Source of the DNA: a virus
Direction: 5' to 3' (one strand)
Virus genome (UHGV): UHGV-0112899
DNA length: 64,000 nt
A program made the position numbers and the translations under genes. This document shows positions 4,093-55,470 of this stretch, in pieces (within the stretch, counting starts at the first letter, position 1; each line of letters begins with the position of its first letter). The notes beneath the pieces were generated by a model. That model saw only the letters and a list, made by a program, of their open reading frames with translations, searched no databases and was not told the DNA's origin.

Positions 4093-4197
4093 GAAAACAC
4101 ACAGTTGCGCCCTGGCATTATCGTGGGGTATATTTCTACGGCACCTTAGAAAAACGGGTGCCGGGATTGGAACCCCGGATAATGCAAAAGGCGACAC

Positions 4198-4220
4198 AGA
4201 CGCCGAAAGCGTCTTTTTTT
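4198..4220 (+). terminator. rho-independent terminator
   Basis: stem agacgc/gcgtct with 5-nt loop followed by T7 run. Confidence 0.6.
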
Positions 4221-4229
4221 GTGTCATGC

Positions 4230-4400
4230 CATCGCACAGCCATGCGTAGCGTTTAGCTCAGAGATCAATGGTAGTGCTGGCTGGGCTGCCGAAAGGCAGG
4301 CCGGTTCCCTTTTGCGCCGGTAGTTCCAACCCAGTCAGTGCTACCGCCATTGAGATTGGAACCTCACGCGGTAGCTCCTTAAATTAGCAAAAGGAGGCTG
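4230..4400 (+). ncRNA. candidate structured leader / antisense-type regulatory RNA (c4-like by position)
   Basis: long-range complementarity (caatggtagtgctgg vs cagtgctaccgccattg) plus ggctgcc hairpin directly upstream of the coupled small ORF and Rha gene. Confidence 0.25.
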
Positions 4401-5600: not shown

Positions 5601-5939
5601 GTGACCGGACACAGCAAAATGTATGCCACGAAAAAAATTGATTTCACTTATTCTTCCGCCACAATTGAGCGGCGCTTCACCCTCATTAGAGAGTTGGAAC
5701 TGTCAAAAGTCTGGTATCAAATTCTACTGGATGAAGAGTTCTCACTGATGATAATGGCTAAAAAAGAAGCAATGCCGAATGACCGGCATAAAGTCATTGC
5801 CAGCCTTGACCTGGTGACAAACAGATACTGGGAGACAGAGGAACTGCGTGAAGCGGGAGTAATTCGTGACCTGATGGAGAGTTCCGTTCCCCGCCGCTAT
5901 CGTGCGGGAAACGAAATCTCCGTGATTAAAGGGGCTTAA
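5601..5939 (+). CDS. hypothetical protein
   Basis: 112-aa ORF; GTG or downstream ATG start uncertain. Confidence 0.35.
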   Translation: MTGHSKMYATKKIDFTYSSATIERRFTLIRELELSKVWYQILLDEEFSLMIMAKKEAMPNDRHKVIASLDLVTNRYWETEELREAGVIRDLMESSVPRRYRAGNEISVIKGA

Positions 5940-6379
5940 AGCTCACCAGCACGCTGTTTTTCAAGCGTAGATTTAACATTGGGCGCTTTCCCTTTAAAAG
6001 AATGGAAAGTGCCACATTTTTCTGTTTTAACCTCGCGCAGAGCTTCGCCATCGGCGTTCTGCCATTGATGAGATAACGTCATATCACCGCGAGAAGGAAC
6101 ATCCAGCGAGTACAACGTGTAAGTTCCCCCCATCTCGGCATACTCCTGGAACACATAGCTCATTACGTCAGATTCAGTTTTCCGGTGCGCGTTATCAACC
6201 TTATTCCCATTCAGAAATATGGCGTTCGGATAGATTTTTATATCAAACCTACCGCACTTTACCTGCAAATTCCCAGCATTAGCAATCAAAGGAAAAAACA
6301 TTAATGCCGCTATAGCCAGCTTATTCAAGTTTGATGTCTTTGTTGAAGAAAATGGTTTCTCTTTTTTTATGCGTATCAT
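5936..6379 (-). CDS. secreted protein of unknown function
   Basis: N-terminal signal peptide ending LIANA-G; GGAG RBS 8 nt upstream of ATG 6379. Confidence 0.5.
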   Translation of the reverse strand: MIRIKKEKPFSSTKTSNLNKLAIAALMFFPLIANAGNLQVKCGRFDIKIYPNAIFLNGNKVDNAHRKTESDVMSYVFQEYAEMGGTYTLYSLDVPSRGDMTLSHQWQNADGEALREVKTEKCGTFHSFKGKAPNVKSTLEKQRAGEL

Positions 6380-6422
6380 TTCATTAACTCCATACATTGT
6401 TGTCTTTTCATCCAATTTGAGG

Positions 6423-7052
6423 TTAATTAGTACAATTCATTTTTGCAGCGACTTCGGCTACCCCACGATCAATGTAAGGCTGCTCACTTAATATCTTTTG
6501 GATCTCACTACGAATGCATTCCGCTGTAGGTTGCTTAGGTGCTTGTTTTTGCTTCGCGGATCGTTCAAGTTCCATCATGTTATTGAATCCTGCCACATCA
6601 CTTTGCCGAAGCATCCCTTTCCGGATAAGAAACTGCTGCCCTTCAGGCACCCAAGCCAGCATATACAAAGGCTGCAATAGATCTCCCATTCCTTGCTGAC
6701 GATAAAGCTCAAACTGCAACACGCCGTTACTTAACACCGACATTGTGTCTTTGGTGGAATACCCTGTCTTTTGTATGGCTTTGCCTGTTTCATCTGCTGC
6801 ATATGCAAATACACAGAACTCAATGTTGCTTTTAAAGAATGGCTCTACAGGTTTCAGCGGGATATTTTCTTTCTGGCAATAGTTTGAAACTTCATCAGGC
6901 GTATAGTTTGTTTTGGCGTTTCGCAACACCTTCAGCCCAGCCTCATACTTTGCAGGTAACGCGCCTGCATAGGCAGCATTAAGAGAAACTCCCCCCAATA
7001 TAACCGCGAGCACTGCTCCCAAAACCCTTAACTTCACAAAACCATCCTTCAT
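6423..7052 (-). CDS. secreted protein of unknown function
   Basis: signal peptide MKDGFVKLRVLGAVLAVILGGVSLNAAYA; same operon as 5936-6379. Confidence 0.5.
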   Translation of the reverse strand: MKDGFVKLRVLGAVLAVILGGVSLNAAYAGALPAKYEAGLKVLRNAKTNYTPDEVSNYCQKENIPLKPVEPFFKSNIEFCVFAYAADETGKAIQKTGYSTKDTMSVLSNGVLQFELYRQQGMGDLLQPLYMLAWVPEGQQFLIRKGMLRQSDVAGFNNMMELERSAKQKQAPKQPTAECIRSEIQKILSEQPYIDRGVAEVAAKMNCTN

Positions 7053-7267
7053 GTAAACAAACTGAAGTTTTATGTTACAAAAACAAACATCTACGCCAAA
7101 ATGACTTAGGCCAAATTCAGCGCGAATAAAAAATTCAAAAAAATTGTTGACACTATTCTGGAAATCACAATCTGGACAAAATCCATTGCGCAAACGGCTC
7201 CCGTTGAAGGTTCTTTTGACGACTAACTTTCAGCCGATGCGCGGTAGGGAGTCATAACGCCAAAGCA

Positions 7268-7291
7268 GGCCGCCATGTGCGGCCTTTTTTT
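7268..7291 (+). terminator. rho-independent terminator / attenuator
   Basis: stem ggccgc/gcggcc, loop catgt, T7 run; lies 27 nt upstream of the 7318 start. Confidence 0.5.
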
Positions 7292-7317
7292 GTGCCTGCT
7301 ATCGTGGAGTAAAAGCC

Positions 7318-7971
7318 ATGCAAAAGATCGCAATATTCAGTCTTTCTACTAACAAGCCGCTGATGGCTACGGCAGTCCTGAAAGACGGCGCGCTTGTAAT
7401 TGACAAAGTAAAGCCGCTCCCTGCATCTGCTATTGAACAAAAACGAAAAATTCCACCAGCAATTGCCGAGCTGCGTAAAAGTGAATTTAAGGTGCTGGTT
7501 GACGAAATCACGCCAACCATTTCAGCCGGTACAGGTGCCAGCCAGGTAACATTAAAAACACGGCACGCCGACGGCAGAGCAGCGATCATTGTCGGCATGG
7601 AGAGATACCGGGAGCTGAAACTACAAAGGCTGCTATCCCTGCCTGACAAGAACAAAGGGGCATTTGAGATCCCCGACTCTATCGTCGATACCGAATACAA
7701 CGGCAACGGTGAAGAGGTTTATCGAGTTAACTGGCAAGATATCCGACCAGAGCACATCCTGATGATTCTGTGCTGCTATGCAACGGTATACCACAATGTT
7801 GCCAGCGCGGATTACCTGAAACAAATGACAGGAGCGGTAGAGAAAGAAAACAAAGCAGGGATAATGGCCTCGTTCCTGTCCATTATCAGCGATCAAAAAG
7901 CTAAAGCAGGAAATACCCAACCAAAATCGCTGGCCGGGCAAGTAATTGATGAAGATACGGTGATACTTTAA
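7318..7971 (+). CDS. hypothetical protein
   Basis: 217-aa ORF with GGAG RBS. Confidence 0.5.
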   Translation: MQKIAIFSLSTNKPLMATAVLKDGALVIDKVKPLPASAIEQKRKIPPAIAELRKSEFKVLVDEITPTISAGTGASQVTLKTRHADGRAAIIVGMERYRELKLQRLLSLPDKNKGAFEIPDSIVDTEYNGNGEEVYRVNWQDIRPEHILMILCCYATVYHNVASADYLKQMTGAVEKENKAGIMASFLSIISDQKAKAGNTQPKSLAGQVIDEDTVIL

Positions 7972-32048: not shown

Positions 32049-35000
32049 GTGGCGGGCACTCCATATGGAAAAAGCACTGGAAGAGAAATACAAAGCCCAC
32101 GCCAAAAAAACAGGGTGATCACCGCCGATGTAAGTGAGGTTATTTTGAACGATAAAAAAGACCGAATAGCGATAATCGACGCAATACAAACGGCAAACGC
32201 GAAAGAGCTAGCTGCGCTTTCAGAAATAAAAAAAGCACTTGAGTCTTACGGACGCAATCCTGATACCAGCGACGCACCACAAGGACGCGTAAGTCGTCGC
32301 CTGGCCCGAACAGGGAAAGCAGGGGCGCAACGCAACAGTTTCACACAGGGGCCGTATAAAGACCGGCTCCCTACCAGGAAACAGAGATTACGTATAAACA
32401 ACACTAGCGAGATAGATAATCCGCAAAAAGCAGCAGCAGATCACCGCACCGCTCATTCGGAATCAAAAACAGCACCGCTGGCTGAAGGCAAAGCCACGAA
32501 GTCATCACCTGAGCGCATTCAATCGCTCACTCCTGACATTCAGCCTGCAAGGCAAGAACAACCAGTTAGAGAAAACCAGAGCATCGCTGGTGCACCGTTA
32601 CGGGATAGCAACGGACGATTTGCCTCTCAGAAAAAAAACGAGGATCTCGCACGCCAGAATGAGCTACGCGCACAGGCAAAACTACAGGTTGGGTTCCTGC
32701 GAAAACTCGGTTCCATTATGGGGGTTGATGGTTCAGGGAAAGCCGACGATGGAGCTGTAACCGATGCTGCCGGGGTAGGGGCTGGTGGTCCACTATGGAT
32801 GGCAGCACGGGGCGTATTTGATATCAGCCGCGAGATTACTGGTAAGGCTAAATCATTGAAAGAATGGATAGATAATGGCAACGACAAGGCGGCTGGCGCA
32901 CCGGTGGTCGCAAAAGCCCCCGCCATTACTTACCCGGCACCTGACAATGAAAGGAAGACTCCAGATAACGCGCCCGGTTCAGCAAAGGCATTTACTGAAG
33001 CCGTTAAAGAAAAATCTGTGCGTGCGATCGAAGAACAAACGAAAGTTCTTCAACGCAACGACAGCCAGATAATTGATGAGCTGGAAACTGTATCCGAAGA
33101 GATCCGGAAGCTAAGAAAGTCCCAGGAGAGTGGGCTAAAACTGAGCGACCTCCTCGGCGGTGGCAGATTACGTACCAAAATATCCCCTACACGCGGTCGT
33201 AGCAGTGCACGTGGTGGCAACACGGGCCGCACTGGAGACAGTAAAGAAAACAAGGGCAAGAAGGGAAAAAACACCAGCAAACCTACTGAGACGGGCAGGA
33301 GTCAGGAAGGCAAAGAGGGGAAAAAAAATCAGCCAGGCAAAAACAACAGTGCGGGCGAGGAAAAAAATCGGACAAAAAATGCTGGTGGGAACGAGGGTAG
33401 TACCTCACCAAAATCATCGGGTGATAAATCTTCAGTTAAAACCAGAGCAGGTAAGGTCACTCAAGAAAGCGTAGCCAAAACGGCGGCTGGTGGAGCGGCA
33501 GGGAAAGACGCTGGTAAAGCGGCAACTTCCGCTGGGGAAAGCCTTACCAGGAAAGAGGCGGGTAAGGTTGCCGTTGCCACTGGTGAAAACATCGCGAAAA
33601 AAGAAGCTGGAAAAGTGGCTCTCAAAGCTGCCGGAGGTGTTGCCGCAAGGGCCGGATTCAGGGCGATTCCAGTCATCGGCCAGGTGGCTATGGTTGGTTA
33701 TGATGCCGTAGACGGCTACAGCGACACAGAAGCGCAGAGGGCGACTTATAACCTGAAGGAAGGGCAGGACGTTACAACACAGCAAAAGAGCGCCTACGCC
33801 GCTGCTAACGTCCTGGATATGGGCGGTCTGGTGACGGGAGCGGCTAACCTCATTGGCGAGGGGATGTCCGCGCTAGGCTTTGAAGGTGTCGGACAAAAAC
33901 TTCAGAGTCTTGATACCAGCAATATTGCTCGCGGCATAAATAGTTCTATCGACGCGTCGAAGAACGCATTCAGCAGCCTAAAAGAATCGTTCTCATCAAG
34001 CAGCGAAGGCACTGCGCAGGTTAAGAAAGCCGTTGAAGATGGCACCAAGCAAACGGTAGCCGCAATTAATGATCTGGCCCGACAGCTACAGGGCGGGCGC
34101 AGAGGTGAGGATGGCGTGGGTGAACACGGCTACAAATCGCCAGACGAATTTAAAGCGCCTGAAAAAAATACAATAACGACTGATCTGAATATAGGCGGAA
34201 GCAACGCCAAGAACAGGAATTACCGGAATAACAACCTGGGGAACCTGGTTTTTGCAAATCAGGAGGGGGCGGTACTGGAAGCGCCGAACGCGAAAGGCGA
34301 ACAGCGTTTTGCGCGGTTTAATACGCCCGAAGAAGGGATTCGGGCATTGGCAAACCAGGTATCGAGTTATTACAACGGTACAAGTGCTGCCGCTGGGTAT
34401 CAGAAGCTGCAAACAGTATCCAGCATCATTTCAAAATGGGCACCACCAACAGAGAACAACACCAATCAGTACATTGAAAACGTCAGCAAATATCTAGGGG
34501 TATCCCCCAACGATAAAATAGACGTTAGCAACCCTGAAGTTATGACGCACCTTGTTCGCGCTATTGCGACGAAGGAGGGGGGTAACCCGGCGGTTAACAA
34601 CAATTTCATCAAAACAGCTCTTGGTTCATTCAACGCTAAAACTGGGCGTTGGGAAGGGCAATTCAATGATGAAACGCTGGAACACATTAATAAAATCCAG
34701 AAGGAAAAGGGCGGTCCTCTAATCGCTCGCAACTCCCAATATAGTGTCGGTAGCAAAGTCAAATACGCCAACGGCTCATCTTCTGCTATTCCTGCGTCAA
34801 GCGTAGCCCAGGCTGTAATGCCTAGCCCTACTGACGTGGTTCAACACGCACAGGCAGCTAAAAAACCGAAGGCAGCTCAACAGGAAAATGCCCAAGCGAT
34901 CAGCCACGCGAAAGCTAGTGGCAATTCTTCCGCCGCAGCCGGATTGACGGAGCGGTTAATGAGTGCAGACGGTGTTGGGGGCGTCATCGCCGGGATAGTT

Positions 35001-35912
35001 GGGGGAGATCCCAATATGGGGCTAAATCTCGGCCCTGTCAGTTCTCCGGAAGAGATGTCCTCGTTAGCAGCAAAAGCCAAGCAATTGGATAAGTTTCTTG
35101 TTGAAAAAATATCCAGAGCAACGGGCAAAAACTTTAGTTTCCAGAAGGCGGAACAGATCGCCGATATCACTACGGCTATACAGCAAAAGCGCAACGTTAA
35201 CCGCGATACAGAAACCATTGGCCTGCTTCCGGAGAGTCCGGCAACCATCAGCGAGAAGCGTGCCACATCGACACCGGCGGGTGTGCAGATGTACGACAAC
35301 GGCTACAAGGTGGTTGAAGGTGAGGACAGGGGCTTCTTTGGCTCGCTATTTGATTCAACTGTGTCAGGGCTTAACCAGGTAGGCTCCGCCGTCCTCCCCG
35401 CCGTTGGAGATAACCTCTCGCGACTTGTGGGCGGTATTGATAGCACCGGAATGTTAAATGACTTTGTATTGCAGTCCTCTGGACAGAATACCGATGTTGC
35501 TCGCGCTATTAGTCCGTTAACAAGGAGTGTTGGCGGTTGGCTGAATGGTGGCATACAGAAAACGGCGGATACGATCAGGGACACAACTGGCGCAATCAAT
35601 CAAAGCCTGTTTGCTTCGGGCGTGGCTGCTAAAGAACCGTTCCTTGCAATGCCTCCGCAGCTACCAATCGTCACGGACCTCGCACGAAGCGGAATAAGGC
35701 AGATGCTAACAACAGATACCGCAAATAACGATCCGGCTATGTTGAAAGCACTGGAGAACGTTTATTCCGTTCTTAAAGAGATTCTTGGCGTAAGCAAAGA
35801 CAACCGCAAAGGCGATCAGGACAAAGTTGTGAACACATCACAACCACAACCTCGTCAGCGTGCCAGCACGACTATCAATGACCCATCTCTTGACAAATTA
35901 CTGGAGGATTAA
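32049..35912 (+). CDS. tape-measure-like protein with putative transglycosylase segment (Sit-like)
   Basis: 1287 aa with Lys/Gly-rich low-complexity region and EGGNPAVNN-containing segment; precedes baseplate genes; non-ATG start uncertain. Confidence 0.45.
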   Translation: MAGTPYGKSTGREIQSPRQKNRVITADVSEVILNDKKDRIAIIDAIQTANAKELAALSEIKKALESYGRNPDTSDAPQGRVSRRLARTGKAGAQRNSFTQGPYKDRLPTRKQRLRINNTSEIDNPQKAAADHRTAHSESKTAPLAEGKATKSSPERIQSLTPDIQPARQEQPVRENQSIAGAPLRDSNGRFASQKKNEDLARQNELRAQAKLQVGFLRKLGSIMGVDGSGKADDGAVTDAAGVGAGGPLWMAARGVFDISREITGKAKSLKEWIDNGNDKAAGAPVVAKAPAITYPAPDNERKTPDNAPGSAKAFTEAVKEKSVRAIEEQTKVLQRNDSQIIDELETVSEEIRKLRKSQESGLKLSDLLGGGRLRTKISPTRGRSSARGGNTGRTGDSKENKGKKGKNTSKPTETGRSQEGKEGKKNQPGKNNSAGEEKNRTKNAGGNEGSTSPKSSGDKSSVKTRAGKVTQESVAKTAAGGAAGKDAGKAATSAGESLTRKEAGKVAVATGENIAKKEAGKVALKAAGGVAARAGFRAIPVIGQVAMVGYDAVDGYSDTEAQRATYNLKEGQDVTTQQKSAYAAANVLDMGGLVTGAANLIGEGMSALGFEGVGQKLQSLDTSNIARGINSSIDASKNAFSSLKESFSSSSEGTAQVKKAVEDGTKQTVAAINDLARQLQGGRRGEDGVGEHGYKSPDEFKAPEKNTITTDLNIGGSNAKNRNYRNNNLGNLVFANQEGAVLEAPNAKGEQRFARFNTPEEGIRALANQVSSYYNGTSAAAGYQKLQTVSSIISKWAPPTENNTNQYIENVSKYLGVSPNDKIDVSNPEVMTHLVRAIATKEGGNPAVNNNFIKTALGSFNAKTGRWEGQFNDETLEHINKIQKEKGGPLIARNSQYSVGSKVKYANGSSSAIPASSVAQAVMPSPTDVVQHAQAAKKPKAAQQENAQAISHAKASGNSSAAAGLTERLMSADGVGGVIAGIVGGDPNMGLNLGPVSSPEEMSSLAAKAKQLDKFLVEKISRATGKNFSFQKAEQIADITTAIQQKRNVNRDTETIGLLPESPATISEKRATSTPAGVQMYDNGYKVVEGEDRGFFGSLFDSTVSGLNQVGSAVLPAVGDNLSRLVGGIDSTGMLNDFVLQSSGQNTDVARAISPLTRSVGGWLNGGIQKTADTIRDTTGAINQSLFASGVAAKEPFLAMPPQLPIVTDLARSGIRQMLTTDTANNDPAMLKALENVYSVLKEILGVSKDNRKGDQDKVVNTSQPQPRQRASTTINDPSLDKLLED

Positions 35913-39136: not shown

Positions 39137-42100
39137 ATGTGCGCAGATAAAGTAAAGAACATTGTCACCTTATCTTCGGACATTTCCGCTCCACTAATTG
39201 CAGACATGCAATACTTTGAGCTGTATAGCACCGAAGCTCTAAACAGGAAGATGAAAAATATCGTTCTGCCCGGTGTGTACTGTGGGTTTGAACCGGTGCC
39301 AGGGGATGGCCTGTTTGTGCGGATTACATCCGAGAAAACAGAGGGAAGAGGGGCGGCTTCAGTTGACGTGGGTAAATGTCAGATATCCGTGCAGCAAGTC
39401 AGTGATGTTGTTGTTCCTGTAGAAGCAGGTGTAACGACAATCATCGTTCTTGAAGCTAATTACGAACATGGAGTGAAAACCAGCCAGGTAGATAGTTCAT
39501 CGGATATTAGCGCAGCGAGAATTATAGCTCTCGTTGATGAGGGCATAGCATCTAACCAGATTGAGCTATGCCGAGTGATCGTGCCTGACAATGCTCAAGC
39601 CGTTACCGCAGATATGATTAGCACTAAATATCGCGCTAATCGTGCTGTAGGTGTTGAGTTCTCCAGTGCTTTGGATAGTGACGAAGAATATAAAGCTGCA
39701 ACCCCCCTTGCTATCAGCACGTTAAATAAACTTAAAGCTCCGGTTGATAGCCCGGAATTTATAGGTATCCCTACATCTCCAACTCCGGAACAAGGTACAA
39801 ACAGTACACAAATCGCAAACGCTGCCTTTGTTCAGGCCGCTATAACCGCACTTATTGATGGTTCTCCTTCAGCGTTGGATACGCTGAAAAAAATTGCAGA
39901 TGCAATAAACAATGATCCCCAGTTTAGCCAGACGATTAATGATGCTTTAGCTCTTAAAGCGCCGTTATTAAGCCCGGCATTTACGGGGGTTCCAACAGCT
40001 CCTACGGCGTCACAAGGTACGAACAACACTCAGATTGCAACAACCGCTTATGTTCGTGCCGCTATTTCTGCATTGGTCGGCTCATCACCAGAAGCTCTTG
40101 ATACTCTTAATGAGCTTGCTGCGGCGCTGGGCAATGACCCGAACTTTGCGACTACAATGACAAATGCCCTGGCAGGTAAGCAGCCTCTCGACGCAACCTT
40201 AACCGCGCTCGCTGGCCTGGCGACGGGGGCAAATAAATTACCGTACTTTACCGGAACAGACACTGTAGCCCAGACTGATTTAACGTCAGTCGGTCGCGAT
40301 ATTCTTGCTAAAACAAGCACACTGGCTGTTATCCAATACCTTGGTTTAAGAGAACTCGGAACCAGCGGAGAAAAGCTCCCCCTGTTGAGCACAGCTAATA
40401 CCTGGAGTGCACGCCAGACTTTCAGCGCGGGGATCACTGGTACGCTGACCGGGAACGCCGATACTGCGACGAAATTAAAAACAGCCAGAAAGATTAACGG
40501 TGTGGCATTTGATGGGTCGGCAGATATTACTCTGACCCCTGAAGATCTTGGCTTAACGGATATTGCTTCTCAAGCTGGTAACGCAGTTCAGCGTTCTGGC
40601 GACACAATGGGGGGGCAGCTAAAAATTGGCACAATAAATGCCCTTCGAATATTTAACCAGGACTTTGGCCTTATCTTCAGGAGATCCGAGGAATATCTTC
40701 ATCTTATCCCGACAAATGAAGGGGAGGGTGAAAATGGTGACATCGGGCCATTAAGACCATTTTCTATAAACTTAAGAACTGGGTTGGTGTCCATCGGTAA
40801 CGGCGTAAAAGTTGGCGGTGGTATTACTGGTAATTTGACGGGAAACGCAGATACTGCCACAAAGCTCAAGACAGCTCGAACGATCGGCGGAGTGTCATTT
40901 GATGGCAGCGCCAATATCGACCTGCCTGGCGTGAATAAAACGGGTAATCAGAGCACTACCGGCAATGCTGCAACCGCAACGAAACTTCAGACGGCAAGAA
41001 CAATCGGCGGGGTGGCATTTGATGGCACTGCCAATATCAACCTGCCGGGTGTGAACATTGCTGGTAACCAGAACACAACAGGTAATGCTGCAACCGCTAC
41101 AAAACTGCAAACAGCCCGCACAATCAACGGTGTTAAGTTTGATGGTTCTGCGAACATTTCGATACCAACAATTACGTCCAGAGGGCGTGTTACTGCGCTC
41201 ACCAGTACAACGCAAGGTGCTACTACTGGATTGCAGATGTATGAGGCGTACAACAACGGCTATCCTTCTGCTTACGGGAATGTGCTTCATCTTAAGGGCG
41301 CAGCTGCCGCTGGTGAAGGCGAGTTGTTCATAGGTTGGAGCGGTACAAGTGGTGCTCATGCGCCTGTACATGTACGTTCACGACGAGATGCTGATACAGC
41401 CAGTTGGTCTGAGTGGGCGCAGGTCTACACATCGAAAGATTCCATCCCTGGTGTAAATACCACGGGCAACCAGAACACAACTGGGAACGCGGCGTCTGCA
41501 ACGAAATTACTAACGGCAAGAACTATTGGTGGTGTTTCATTTAATGGCACCGCAAATATCGACCTGCCGGGCGTGAATAAAACAGGTAATCAGAGCACTA
41601 CCGGCAATGCTGCAACTGCAACGAAACTTCAGACGGCACGCACAATCGGCGGGGTTTCGTTTGATGGTACAGCAAACATCAATCTTCCGGGCGTTAATAT
41701 TGCCGGAAATCAAAATACAAGTGGTAATGCAGCTACAGCGACAAAGTTAAAAACTGCCAGAAAAATAAGTGGAGTGGCTTTTGATGGTTCTGCAGACATC
41801 AGATTAACGGCAAGTCATGTTGGTGCGTTACCAACAACAGGTGGTACTGTTACCGGTGAAATTATATCCAGCAGCCAAAATGCTATACGCCTAACTTATA
41901 ATAATAACTATGGATTCCTAATAACTAATACTGGATATAGTTTCCAGATATCAACCACTGGGCAAAATGTTAATGGTGATGTCGTTTACACTCCATTAAA
42001 GATAGATGGCGGTGATGGTCGCGTAGAATTAGGACGTGCTGATGGTCATGTAAGGGTTATGGGGAATTTATCTGCCGCTGGTCAGATTACCCCTGGTAAC

Positions 42101-42406
42101 TATAGTAATTTCAACACGAAATATCAGGCTAAAAACACAGCATATGCCAACATTCATGGATGGCATAAGGATACATCAACTAAGGTGATGATGCAGTGGG
42201 GGTTTATAACAAATTTAACTCCAGGAAGCGTGGTTAAATTTCCGACTGCTTTTCCTGAGGCGTGTGCGGTAGTTGTGATTTCGCCTCACAGCGGGAATGC
42301 TGTCAATTCAATTCTTTATACATACAACCACTCAGCCACTGGTTTTACAGTGAAAAGTAGCTCCACTGATAAAATATATGCACAGTATGTTGCTTATGGG
42401 TATTAA
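39137..42406 (+). CDS. tail fibre protein with internal tandem repeats
   Basis: 1089 aa; many copies of GN(A/Q)xT(A/T)TKL(K/Q)TAR(T/K)I(G/N)GV.FDG.A(N/D)I; followed by a tail fibre assembly gene. Confidence 0.7.
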   Translation: MCADKVKNIVTLSSDISAPLIADMQYFELYSTEALNRKMKNIVLPGVYCGFEPVPGDGLFVRITSEKTEGRGAASVDVGKCQISVQQVSDVVVPVEAGVTTIIVLEANYEHGVKTSQVDSSSDISAARIIALVDEGIASNQIELCRVIVPDNAQAVTADMISTKYRANRAVGVEFSSALDSDEEYKAATPLAISTLNKLKAPVDSPEFIGIPTSPTPEQGTNSTQIANAAFVQAAITALIDGSPSALDTLKKIADAINNDPQFSQTINDALALKAPLLSPAFTGVPTAPTASQGTNNTQIATTAYVRAAISALVGSSPEALDTLNELAAALGNDPNFATTMTNALAGKQPLDATLTALAGLATGANKLPYFTGTDTVAQTDLTSVGRDILAKTSTLAVIQYLGLRELGTSGEKLPLLSTANTWSARQTFSAGITGTLTGNADTATKLKTARKINGVAFDGSADITLTPEDLGLTDIASQAGNAVQRSGDTMGGQLKIGTINALRIFNQDFGLIFRRSEEYLHLIPTNEGEGENGDIGPLRPFSINLRTGLVSIGNGVKVGGGITGNLTGNADTATKLKTARTIGGVSFDGSANIDLPGVNKTGNQSTTGNAATATKLQTARTIGGVAFDGTANINLPGVNIAGNQNTTGNAATATKLQTARTINGVKFDGSANISIPTITSRGRVTALTSTTQGATTGLQMYEAYNNGYPSAYGNVLHLKGAAAAGEGELFIGWSGTSGAHAPVHVRSRRDADTASWSEWAQVYTSKDSIPGVNTTGNQNTTGNAASATKLLTARTIGGVSFNGTANIDLPGVNKTGNQSTTGNAATATKLQTARTIGGVSFDGTANINLPGVNIAGNQNTSGNAATATKLKTARKISGVAFDGSADIRLTASHVGALPTTGGTVTGEIISSSQNAIRLTYNNNYGFLITNTGYSFQISTTGQNVNGDVVYTPLKIDGGDGRVELGRADGHVRVMGNLSAAGQITPGNYSNFNTKYQAKNTAYANIHGWHKDTSTKVMMQWGFITNLTPGSVVKFPTAFPEACAVVVISPHSGNAVNSILYTYNHSATGFTVKSSSTDKIYAQYVAYGY
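40440..41800 (+). repeat. intragenic repeat blocks in the tail fibre gene
   Basis: ~120-bp repeat units; a ~200-bp segment at 40928-41120 recurs near-identically at 41572-41770. Confidence 0.6.
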
Positions 42407-55221: not shown

Positions 55222-55239
55222 CAGGCTTATATTCATGCC

Positions 55240-55470
55240 GTCGTAGCAAATTCTGCGACCGGGTTTAGCAGCCTGAATGTTAGTGCGGACAACCGCAGAT
55301 ATCCGATATTGCGGTATTTTTGTGTCCGTAAAACCGCGTTACGCCCAAATTATGGTGGGGCGTGATGGGGAGGCTTCGGCCTGCTGGTTTCACTAACGCC
55401 AGTCTGCTAACCCCGTCACGTCCTGCCACCTGTTTAGCAGCGGGTAGCAGGTTGTTAAACCTGTTAGTGA
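55240..55470 (+). ncRNA. candidate structured leader / regulatory RNA of second immunity cassette
   Basis: multiple complementary segments (gtttagcagcc / cctgtttagcagcgggtagcagg) upstream of the coupled small ORF. Confidence 0.2.

Follow-up and report, generated by a model that had tools for sequence, protein, structure and literature searches.

Next to immI (c4-icd-ant), phage P1 carries the sim operon, whose three genes (simA, simB and simC) each code for a protein with a signal peptide. To our knowledge, Sim is the only exclusion system of P1, and it has been without a mechanism since its description in the 1980s. Small envelope proteins encoded by other phages, namely T4 Spackle (Sp) and Imm, T5 Llp, phi80 Cor, HK97 gp15 and P22 SieA, prevent homologous phages that have adsorbed from getting their DNA in; among these proteins, Spackle, which is small, helical and periplasmic, inhibits the incoming tail lysozyme. 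Sim is reported, in references cited in PMC8546580, to cause exclusion of superinfecting P1 at the stage when DNA enters the cell, and sim is dispensable for lytic growth of P1 (PMC10695390). Here we analyse a stretch of 64,000 nucleotides (nt) of the virus genome UHGV-0112899 (the window), in which two adjacent open reading frames, ORF A and ORF B (together, A-B), very probably encode an exported accessory pair that shares its slot with simB. A more tentative proposal, made by analogy with P1 Sim, is that the two proteins act in the periplasm and block the entry of related P1/D6-like phages.

Alignment to phage D6 identifies the window as a D6-like phage-plasmid of the P1 family, which makes precise the "prophage-like element" of an earlier note on this DNA. 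The window also aligns with hundreds of non-mobilizable plasmids of about 90 kb from E. coli, Shigella and Salmonella. Its P1-type genes are ref, icd, ant, pmgF, mat, 26, 25, pmgC and tub, and it has two C4 antisense RNAs. The interval 5936-7052 is exactly occupied by two minus-strand ORFs, ORF A followed by ORF B, separated by 43 nt (Table 1). The earlier note had described a two-gene operon of proteins with N-terminal signal peptides in this interval, and that description stands: both signal peptides are tripartite, with the cleavage motifs AYA-G (ORF A) and ANA-G (ORF B).

The signal peptide of ORF A has a positive n-region and one hydrophobic segment before its cleavage motif. The best 15-residue Kyte-Doolittle window of the protein scores 2.54 and none exceeds 1.5 past residue 40, leaving a predicted mature protein of approximately 180 amino acids (aa) and 20 kDa. 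Its AlphaFold model is an all-alpha, compact globular bundle with a mean predicted local distance difference test (pLDDT) score of 86.8, without a fold neighbour among PDB and viral structures. Four Cys, Gly, Pro and a helix-capping GYSxxDT are invariant in the family, and we infer that these residues are structural and not catalytic. Regarding the start codon, database homologues P0001, P0002 and P0005 (253-256 aa) begin at an upstream TTG and have about 47 extra residues; the corresponding RefSeq-type start in the window is TTG 7193 (256 aa). The extension (7053-7193) has no signal-peptide logic, and this long form is probably a start-codon mis-call. The true start may instead be GTG 7037, which is preceded by an AAGGA Shine-Dalgarno sequence and is the point at which several homologues begin, with MKLRVLG.

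ORF B has a predicted mature protein of about 112 aa (12.6 kDa); its best Kyte-Doolittle window scores 2.12 and, again, none is above 1.5 past residue 40. Two Cys are invariant, and the family motif is YAEMGGxY. In the AlphaFold model the mature part has a pLDDT above 90 and consists of nine beta strands and a C-terminal helix, a generic beta meander without an informative fold match. The G6 run that encodes part of the family motif is kept in most alleles; it is reduced to G5 in P0012, P0013 and P0015 (the last with 16 members), which then read EMGELTRC..., and L020 has a nonsense mutation instead. These frameshifts could be sequencing error, decay or slippage.

The ratios of nonsynonymous to synonymous substitution rates (dN/dS) of ORF A and ORF B against their homologues, 0.08-0.38, denote purifying selection and, together with the confident structure models, indicate that both are real genes. 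Export is supported by the signal peptides and further by the invariant Cys residues (four in ORF A, two in ORF B), which are as expected for disulfide-bonded periplasmic proteins. An N-terminal signal peptide is also a trait of SimC, and in ORF A and ORF B it is accompanied by AXA motifs and Cys pairs.

The earlier note could place no homology for either product, and this holds in Pfam, NCBIfam and PDB sequence searches, which returned nothing, and in PADLOC-DB, where no protein model matched at E <= 0.01. Matches were found to two PHROG families, phrog_12786 (ORF A) and phrog_13864 (ORF B), both of unknown function. A tblastn search of both proteins against 50,697 INPHARED phage records (P1 included) gave no match, suggesting that no cultured phage encodes them, and a pattern search of genomes for ORF B relatives found none. 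The families are small, with 7 (ORF A) and 9 (ORF B) clusters at 90% identity among 5.8 billion proteins, and the ORF A profile had 22 matches among 1.84 billion cluster representatives. The models of ORF A and ORF B resemble no solved lysozyme or hydrolase inhibitor (T4 Spackle, MliC/PliC, Ivy, LprI), and no enzyme fold, motif or family was found in either. The envelope modification that the earlier note had offered as one possible role therefore gains no specific support. A lysogenic-conversion "moron" with some other role in the envelope (defence against unrelated phages, or protection against host lysozyme, bile or other envelope stress by means of a periplasmic binding-protein pair) would also account for two exported proteins on a prophage, and we regard this as unlikely.

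The two genes are consistently found together. Every D6-like locus examined, whether on a plasmid or on a viral contig, has ORF A immediately upstream of ORF B and divergent from mat, and pairs of only about 25-40% identity to the window proteins (L006, L007, L023) retain the A-B order. In two lineages the proteins are fused, with an ORF A-like N-terminal domain and an ORF B-like C-terminal domain: P0026/L022, from Enterobacter hormaechei elements of about 87 kb, and P0029/L024. These natural A::B fusions suggest that ORF A and ORF B are cooperating partners, and because of them a toxin-antitoxin (toxin-antidote) pair was rejected. Truncated ORF A-like and ORF B-like remnants also occur beside repL in the Vibrio parahaemolyticus plasmid pLH214-1 (L073, 18183-18959), where they look like the relic of a phage-plasmid segment in a replicon typed as conjugative.

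The link to sim comes from what occupies the same place in related elements. In phage D6 the slot keeps the same upstream region and the first 17 codons of ORF A, followed by TATGGAGTTAATGAA-ATG, about 13 leader codons in common with ORF B, and then a SimB-like body. This body is a homologue of P1 SimB (52% identity, E 5e-26) with an extra C-terminal domain. The retained ORF A start and ORF B leader indicate that in D6 the body of ORF A was deleted and the cargo of the second gene was swapped. The resulting D6 gene, gp048 ("putative superimmunity accessory function protein"), matches ORF B in position and strand, in its upstream region and ribosome-binding site, and in about its first 13 codons, and differs from it in the mature part, which is a SimB domain plus an unrelated C-terminal domain of 160 aa. 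As annotated (L001 5138-6034), gp048 is a chimeric ORF of 298 aa that begins, in frame, in the 17-codon ORF A remnant; the real gene most likely starts at MFFIKNGKRF..., with its own GGAG and signal peptide.

SimB-like genes also occur together with A-B. Two loci (L006 and L023) have a tightly packed operon of ORF A-like, SimB-like and ORF B-like genes; a third (L024) has SimB followed by an A::B fusion; and in L074, a Citrobacter-type P1-like element of about 90 kb, genes for a 123-aa exported protein, an ORF A-like and a SimB-like protein (X-A-SimB) form an operon directly upstream of icd-ant-kilA. A SimB hidden Markov model matches D6 gp048, L006, L023, L024 and L074, and does not match ORF A or ORF B. 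By position, then, A-B belong to a sim-type locus, as sim-family genes of P1-family elements are found in the same operon or expression slot. A published comparison found sit and the simB region to be the divergent parts of D6-like prophages and described simB substitution among them (PMC6799933). CP032492 has a dcd annotation and an ORF A homologue, and the relatives L005 and L020 have a layout in which a dcd cassette precedes ORF B and ORF A; the five proteins reported for CP032492 are taken to be the dcd cassette, ORF B and ORF A.

The ORF A family has named members in E. coli, Shigella, Salmonella, Enterobacter, Citrobacter, Vibrio and Proteus. Most of them are located on contigs of 80-105 kb, the size range of P1-like phage-plasmids, and the ORF A and ORF B families appear to be confined to such elements. 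A version of ORF A is present in 79 of 5,426 complete E. coli genomes, with 80 of its 87 places on plasmids. In PLSDB, an ORF A-like protein was found in 67 plasmids and a D6-type SimB cassette in about 56. The neighbourhood was compared between the window and the closest plasmid, L004. Here mat (dN 0.000, dS 0.007) and gp26 (dN 0.000, dS 0.014) have a dN/dS of about 0, and that of pmgF (dN 0.008, dS 0.000) is not defined; ORF A reaches 0.38 (dN 0.149, dS 0.395) and ORF B 0.16 (dN 0.031, dS 0.196). ORF A is the fastest-evolving gene of the neighbourhood, and the contrast in dS with mat, gp26 and pmgF suggests that A/B alleles are exchanged by recombination between near-identical backbones. Fast change combined with allele swapping is the pattern that would be expected of a conflict locus engaged in an arms race.

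P1 sim resembles A-B in being a small operon of Sec-exported proteins, carried by a P1-family plasmid prophage and dispensable for growth, and SimB-family genes use the same operons and expression slot as ORF A and ORF B. The two differ in location, as P1 sim lies between pmgC and c4 whereas the A-B slot adjoins mat, and in composition: unlike the three genes of sim, A-B comprises two proteins, which also occur fused and have no detectable homology to SimA, SimB or SimC. At the level of sequence, A-B are real genes with export signals, paired and in places fused, that occupy the simB slot, have a restricted range and evolve fast, and they are not members of the SimA, SimB or SimC families.

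Several results weigh against a role in exclusion. A BLASTP search and hhalign comparison of the ORF A and ORF B profiles with P1 SimC found nothing, and neither protein has sequence or profile similarity to SimA or SimB. The role of SimB in P1 is itself described only as "putative accessory", SimC being the only Sim protein with a demonstrated phenotype. No simple covariation of ORF A alleles with the Sit tail transglycosylase was seen: the sit alleles divide along sub-lineages, one Sit type accompanies different ORF A alleles, and the small sub-lineage in which the Sit allele of the window occurs has differing alleles of ORF A. Regarding regulation, no sigma-70 consensus was recognised near the A-B operon, a search for the P1 C1 operator found none throughout the window, and the P1 late-promoter consensus had one distant match, likely due to chance, and none near the operon. 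Finally, lone ORF B-like genes occur beside a type VI secretion system (T6SS) Hcp/Tlde1 island in another P1-like lineage. Homology of ORF A or ORF B to SimA, SimB, SimC or the D6 C-terminal domain was rejected, as no similarity was found.

The T6SS neighbourhood of these ORF B-like genes bears on a rival explanation, in which A-B would provide orphan immunity to interbacterial toxins that act in the periplasm, such as the Tlde1-type peptidoglycan effectors of T6SS, and the phage-plasmid shields its host from neighbouring bacteria and not from phages. P0021, a distant ORF B homologue (29% identity, common EYAEMGGTYSLY motif) on another P1-like plasmid, is separated by 3 nt from the Tlde1-domain gene downstream of it (Pfam E 2e-31), after which come a 94-aa membrane protein and Hcp, and this four-gene block recurs in a Pseudenterobacter chromosome. 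In addition, the known immunity protein Tldi1 is Sec-exported, beta-rich and about 138 aa long (PMC13478106); compared by description, the Salmonella SPI-6 protein is similar to ORF B in size and in being a beta-rich periplasmic protein. We therefore collected 45 genomic loci with close relatives of the P0021-adjacent Tlde1 effector. The unit conserved across them is Tlde1-TM90-Hcp, where TM90 is the membrane protein of about 90 aa. Upstream of this unit, one of the 45 loci has an ORF B-like gene and another retains a remnant, and the loci have nothing else in common there. The most rapidly diverging member of the unit is TM90, with 20-84% identity compared with 60-92% for the effector, and it is the better immunity candidate. 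L027 has an ORF B-like gene, TM90 and Hcp without the effector, and the window has neither effector nor Hcp near the A-B operon. Unlike Tldi1, the ORF B family has no conserved adjacency to an effector, ORF A has no T6SS link at all, and both families are otherwise confined to P1-like phage-plasmids. As ORF B-like proteins are not a regular immunity partner, the immunity role was largely rejected on these 45 loci and we consider it quite improbable.

The T6SS genes themselves form a cargo island of P1-like phage-plasmids (L003 8001-9711, L027 4968-6216) with Hcp and the membrane protein of about 90 aa, the Tlde1 effector being absent in L027. The Tlde1-membrane protein-Hcp unit is also scattered in the chromosomes of 40+ species of Enterobacter, Pantoea, Erwinia and Leclercia (L028-L072). 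The gene for the membrane protein overlaps the 3' end of the effector gene and diverges fast, and its product is likely an unannotated immunity protein. A PDB search with the Tlde1-like protein returned nothing.

A role of A-B in the lytic cycle was also considered. Cultured phage D6 is viable without either protein, and about half of the D6-like plasmids have a SimB-type cassette instead, which indicates that the pair is dispensable. Both facts speak against A-B being spanin-like, lysis-control or virion-release helpers co-regulated with mat, as might be supposed from their position next to the divergent mat, beyond which come the baseplate genes 26 and 25, and from the adjacency of two envelope-protein genes, as in Rz/Rz1. 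Furthermore, ORF B has no lipobox, the ORF A model is a globular bundle and not an extended coiled coil, the genes are neither nested nor overlapping, and their neighbours are pmgF and mat and not a holin or endolysin gene. Two-component spanins (Rz/Rz1) were rejected on this anatomy (no lipobox, no coiled coil, no lysis cassette), and a lytic role in general seems very unlikely.

Superinfection exclusion, the other role put forward in the earlier note, has gained from the SimB slot in D6, the co-occurrence with SimB in three layouts, the confinement to phage-plasmids and the fast evolution, and has lost the support that homology to SimC could have given; tentative as it is, we prefer it to the other readings. 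In the mechanism that we propose for an entry block, A-B would be expressed in the lysogen, with transcription from the conserved region common with mat. Sec would export both proteins, signal peptidase I would remove their signal peptides, and the mature forms would be disulfide-bonded in the periplasm and assembled there as a complex, acting as a binder or blocker and not as an enzyme. The complex would act after adsorption, so that the DNA of superinfecting P1/D6-like phages would be stopped from crossing the periplasm and inner membrane. Plausible targets would be the tail-tip and transglycosylase (Sit) apparatus, for which Spackle is a plausible model by analogy, or the passage through the inner membrane. 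It is possible, if doubtful, that A-B is an unrecognised two-component periplasmic entry block whose folds have no known relatives, and one cassette of a shuffling "sim supermodule" that would include SimA, SimB, SimC, ORF A, ORF B, the D6 C-terminal domain and the 123-aa protein of L074. Similarly doubtful is the extension that P1-family phage-plasmids exchange these cassettes to exclude one another.

Table 1. Positions of the A-B genes and of neighbouring features (positions are those of the window unless a locus is named)
Feature	Position	Strand	Remarks
pmgF-like gene	5601..5939	+	left slot boundary; convergent; stop overlaps ORF B stop by 4 nt
ORF B, exported-protein precursor	5936..6379	-	147 aa; phrog_13864 E 4e-88
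G6 run in ORF B	6126..6131	-	codons M-G-G of YAEMGG; frameshift site in several database copies
ORF B signal peptide, residues 1-35	6275..6379	-	long basic n-region, LAIAALMFFPLI, ANA then G
Shine-Dalgarno GGAG of ORF B	6388..6391	-	8 nt before ATG; block TATGGAGTTAATGAAATG identical in D6
ORF A, exported-protein precursor	6423..7052	-	209 aa; phrog_12786 E 6e-118
ORF A signal peptide, residues 1-29	6966..7052	-	MKDGFVKLR / VLGAVLAVILGGVSL / NAAYA, then G; conserved in homologues
Intergenic region, common with divergent mat	7053..7317		block 7146-7293 94.6% identical to D6
mat (maturation control) homologue	7318..7971	+	right slot boundary, constant anchor; divergent from ORF A
dcd cassette	L005 2420-4412; L020 5518-7522		insertion point near window 5939

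The intergenic region 7053..7317 presumably holds the promoter and control sites of A-B. Within it, the block 7146-7293 (+ strand) is far more conserved than the flanking genes and has a TTGACA and a -10-like box (CAAAAT/CATAAT), after which there is a structured RNA, about 100 nt long, with a closing stem (GGCUCCC/GGGAGUC) and two hairpins. An intrinsic terminator (7267-7285 plus U7) forms the end of this RNA, 25 nt before the mat ribosome site; the distant L022 keeps the terminator stem and has an altered loop. No Rfam family was assigned (isrK reached 14.7 bits, where the threshold is 50), and the fold has a modest z-score of -1.5. The RNA is a candidate small RNA or mat leader/attenuator, and the block may also control the divergent A-B operon.

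The left flank of the slot is variable among D6-like loci and consists of pmgF/ant/icd, a three-gene dcd cassette or ref; on the right, the baseplate genes 26 and 25 lie beyond mat. The dcd cassette (101 aa, 357 aa and a dCTP deaminase-like Dcd) is found between pmgF and ORF B in many relatives. It has no PADLOC match, Pfam detects only its DCD/dUTPase domain, and it may be a nucleotide-depletion defence or counter-defence. Elsewhere in the window there are two immI-type regions. The first (4141-4351) has a C4 RNA at 4264-4351 and an isrK-like RNA at 4141-4219, upstream of icd-ant. The second (55227-55433) has a C4 RNA at 55348-55433, which adjoins a second icd/ant-like pair and a repL-like gene, and an a1/b1 target element at 55227-55279. 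The Sit-like transglycosylase/tape measure gene (32049-35912) and the tail-fibre gene (39137-42406) are both strongly mosaic. Only 6-7 plasmids match the window sit allele at 98.8% identity or more, and in the others alignment is limited to a central part of about 0.75-1.2 kb, at approximately 77%; the tail-fibre gene has patchy matches only.

Phage-plasmids of the P1 family, which carry resistance genes, are common in Enterobacterales, and the rules of their co-infection and displacement are poorly understood. The sim slot is a polymorphic site at which unrelated exported proteins replace each other at comparable frequencies (67 versus about 56 plasmids). If A-B gives no exclusion, it would be an ordinary accessory periplasmic pair of unknown function. 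If A-B excludes phages, it would provide a tractable two-protein system for a periplasmic block of DNA entry and a marker for exclusion groups among phage-plasmids. Should the sim genes and A-B indeed be cassettes of one supermodule, working out how A-B acts would give the first mechanistic handle on Sim-type exclusion.

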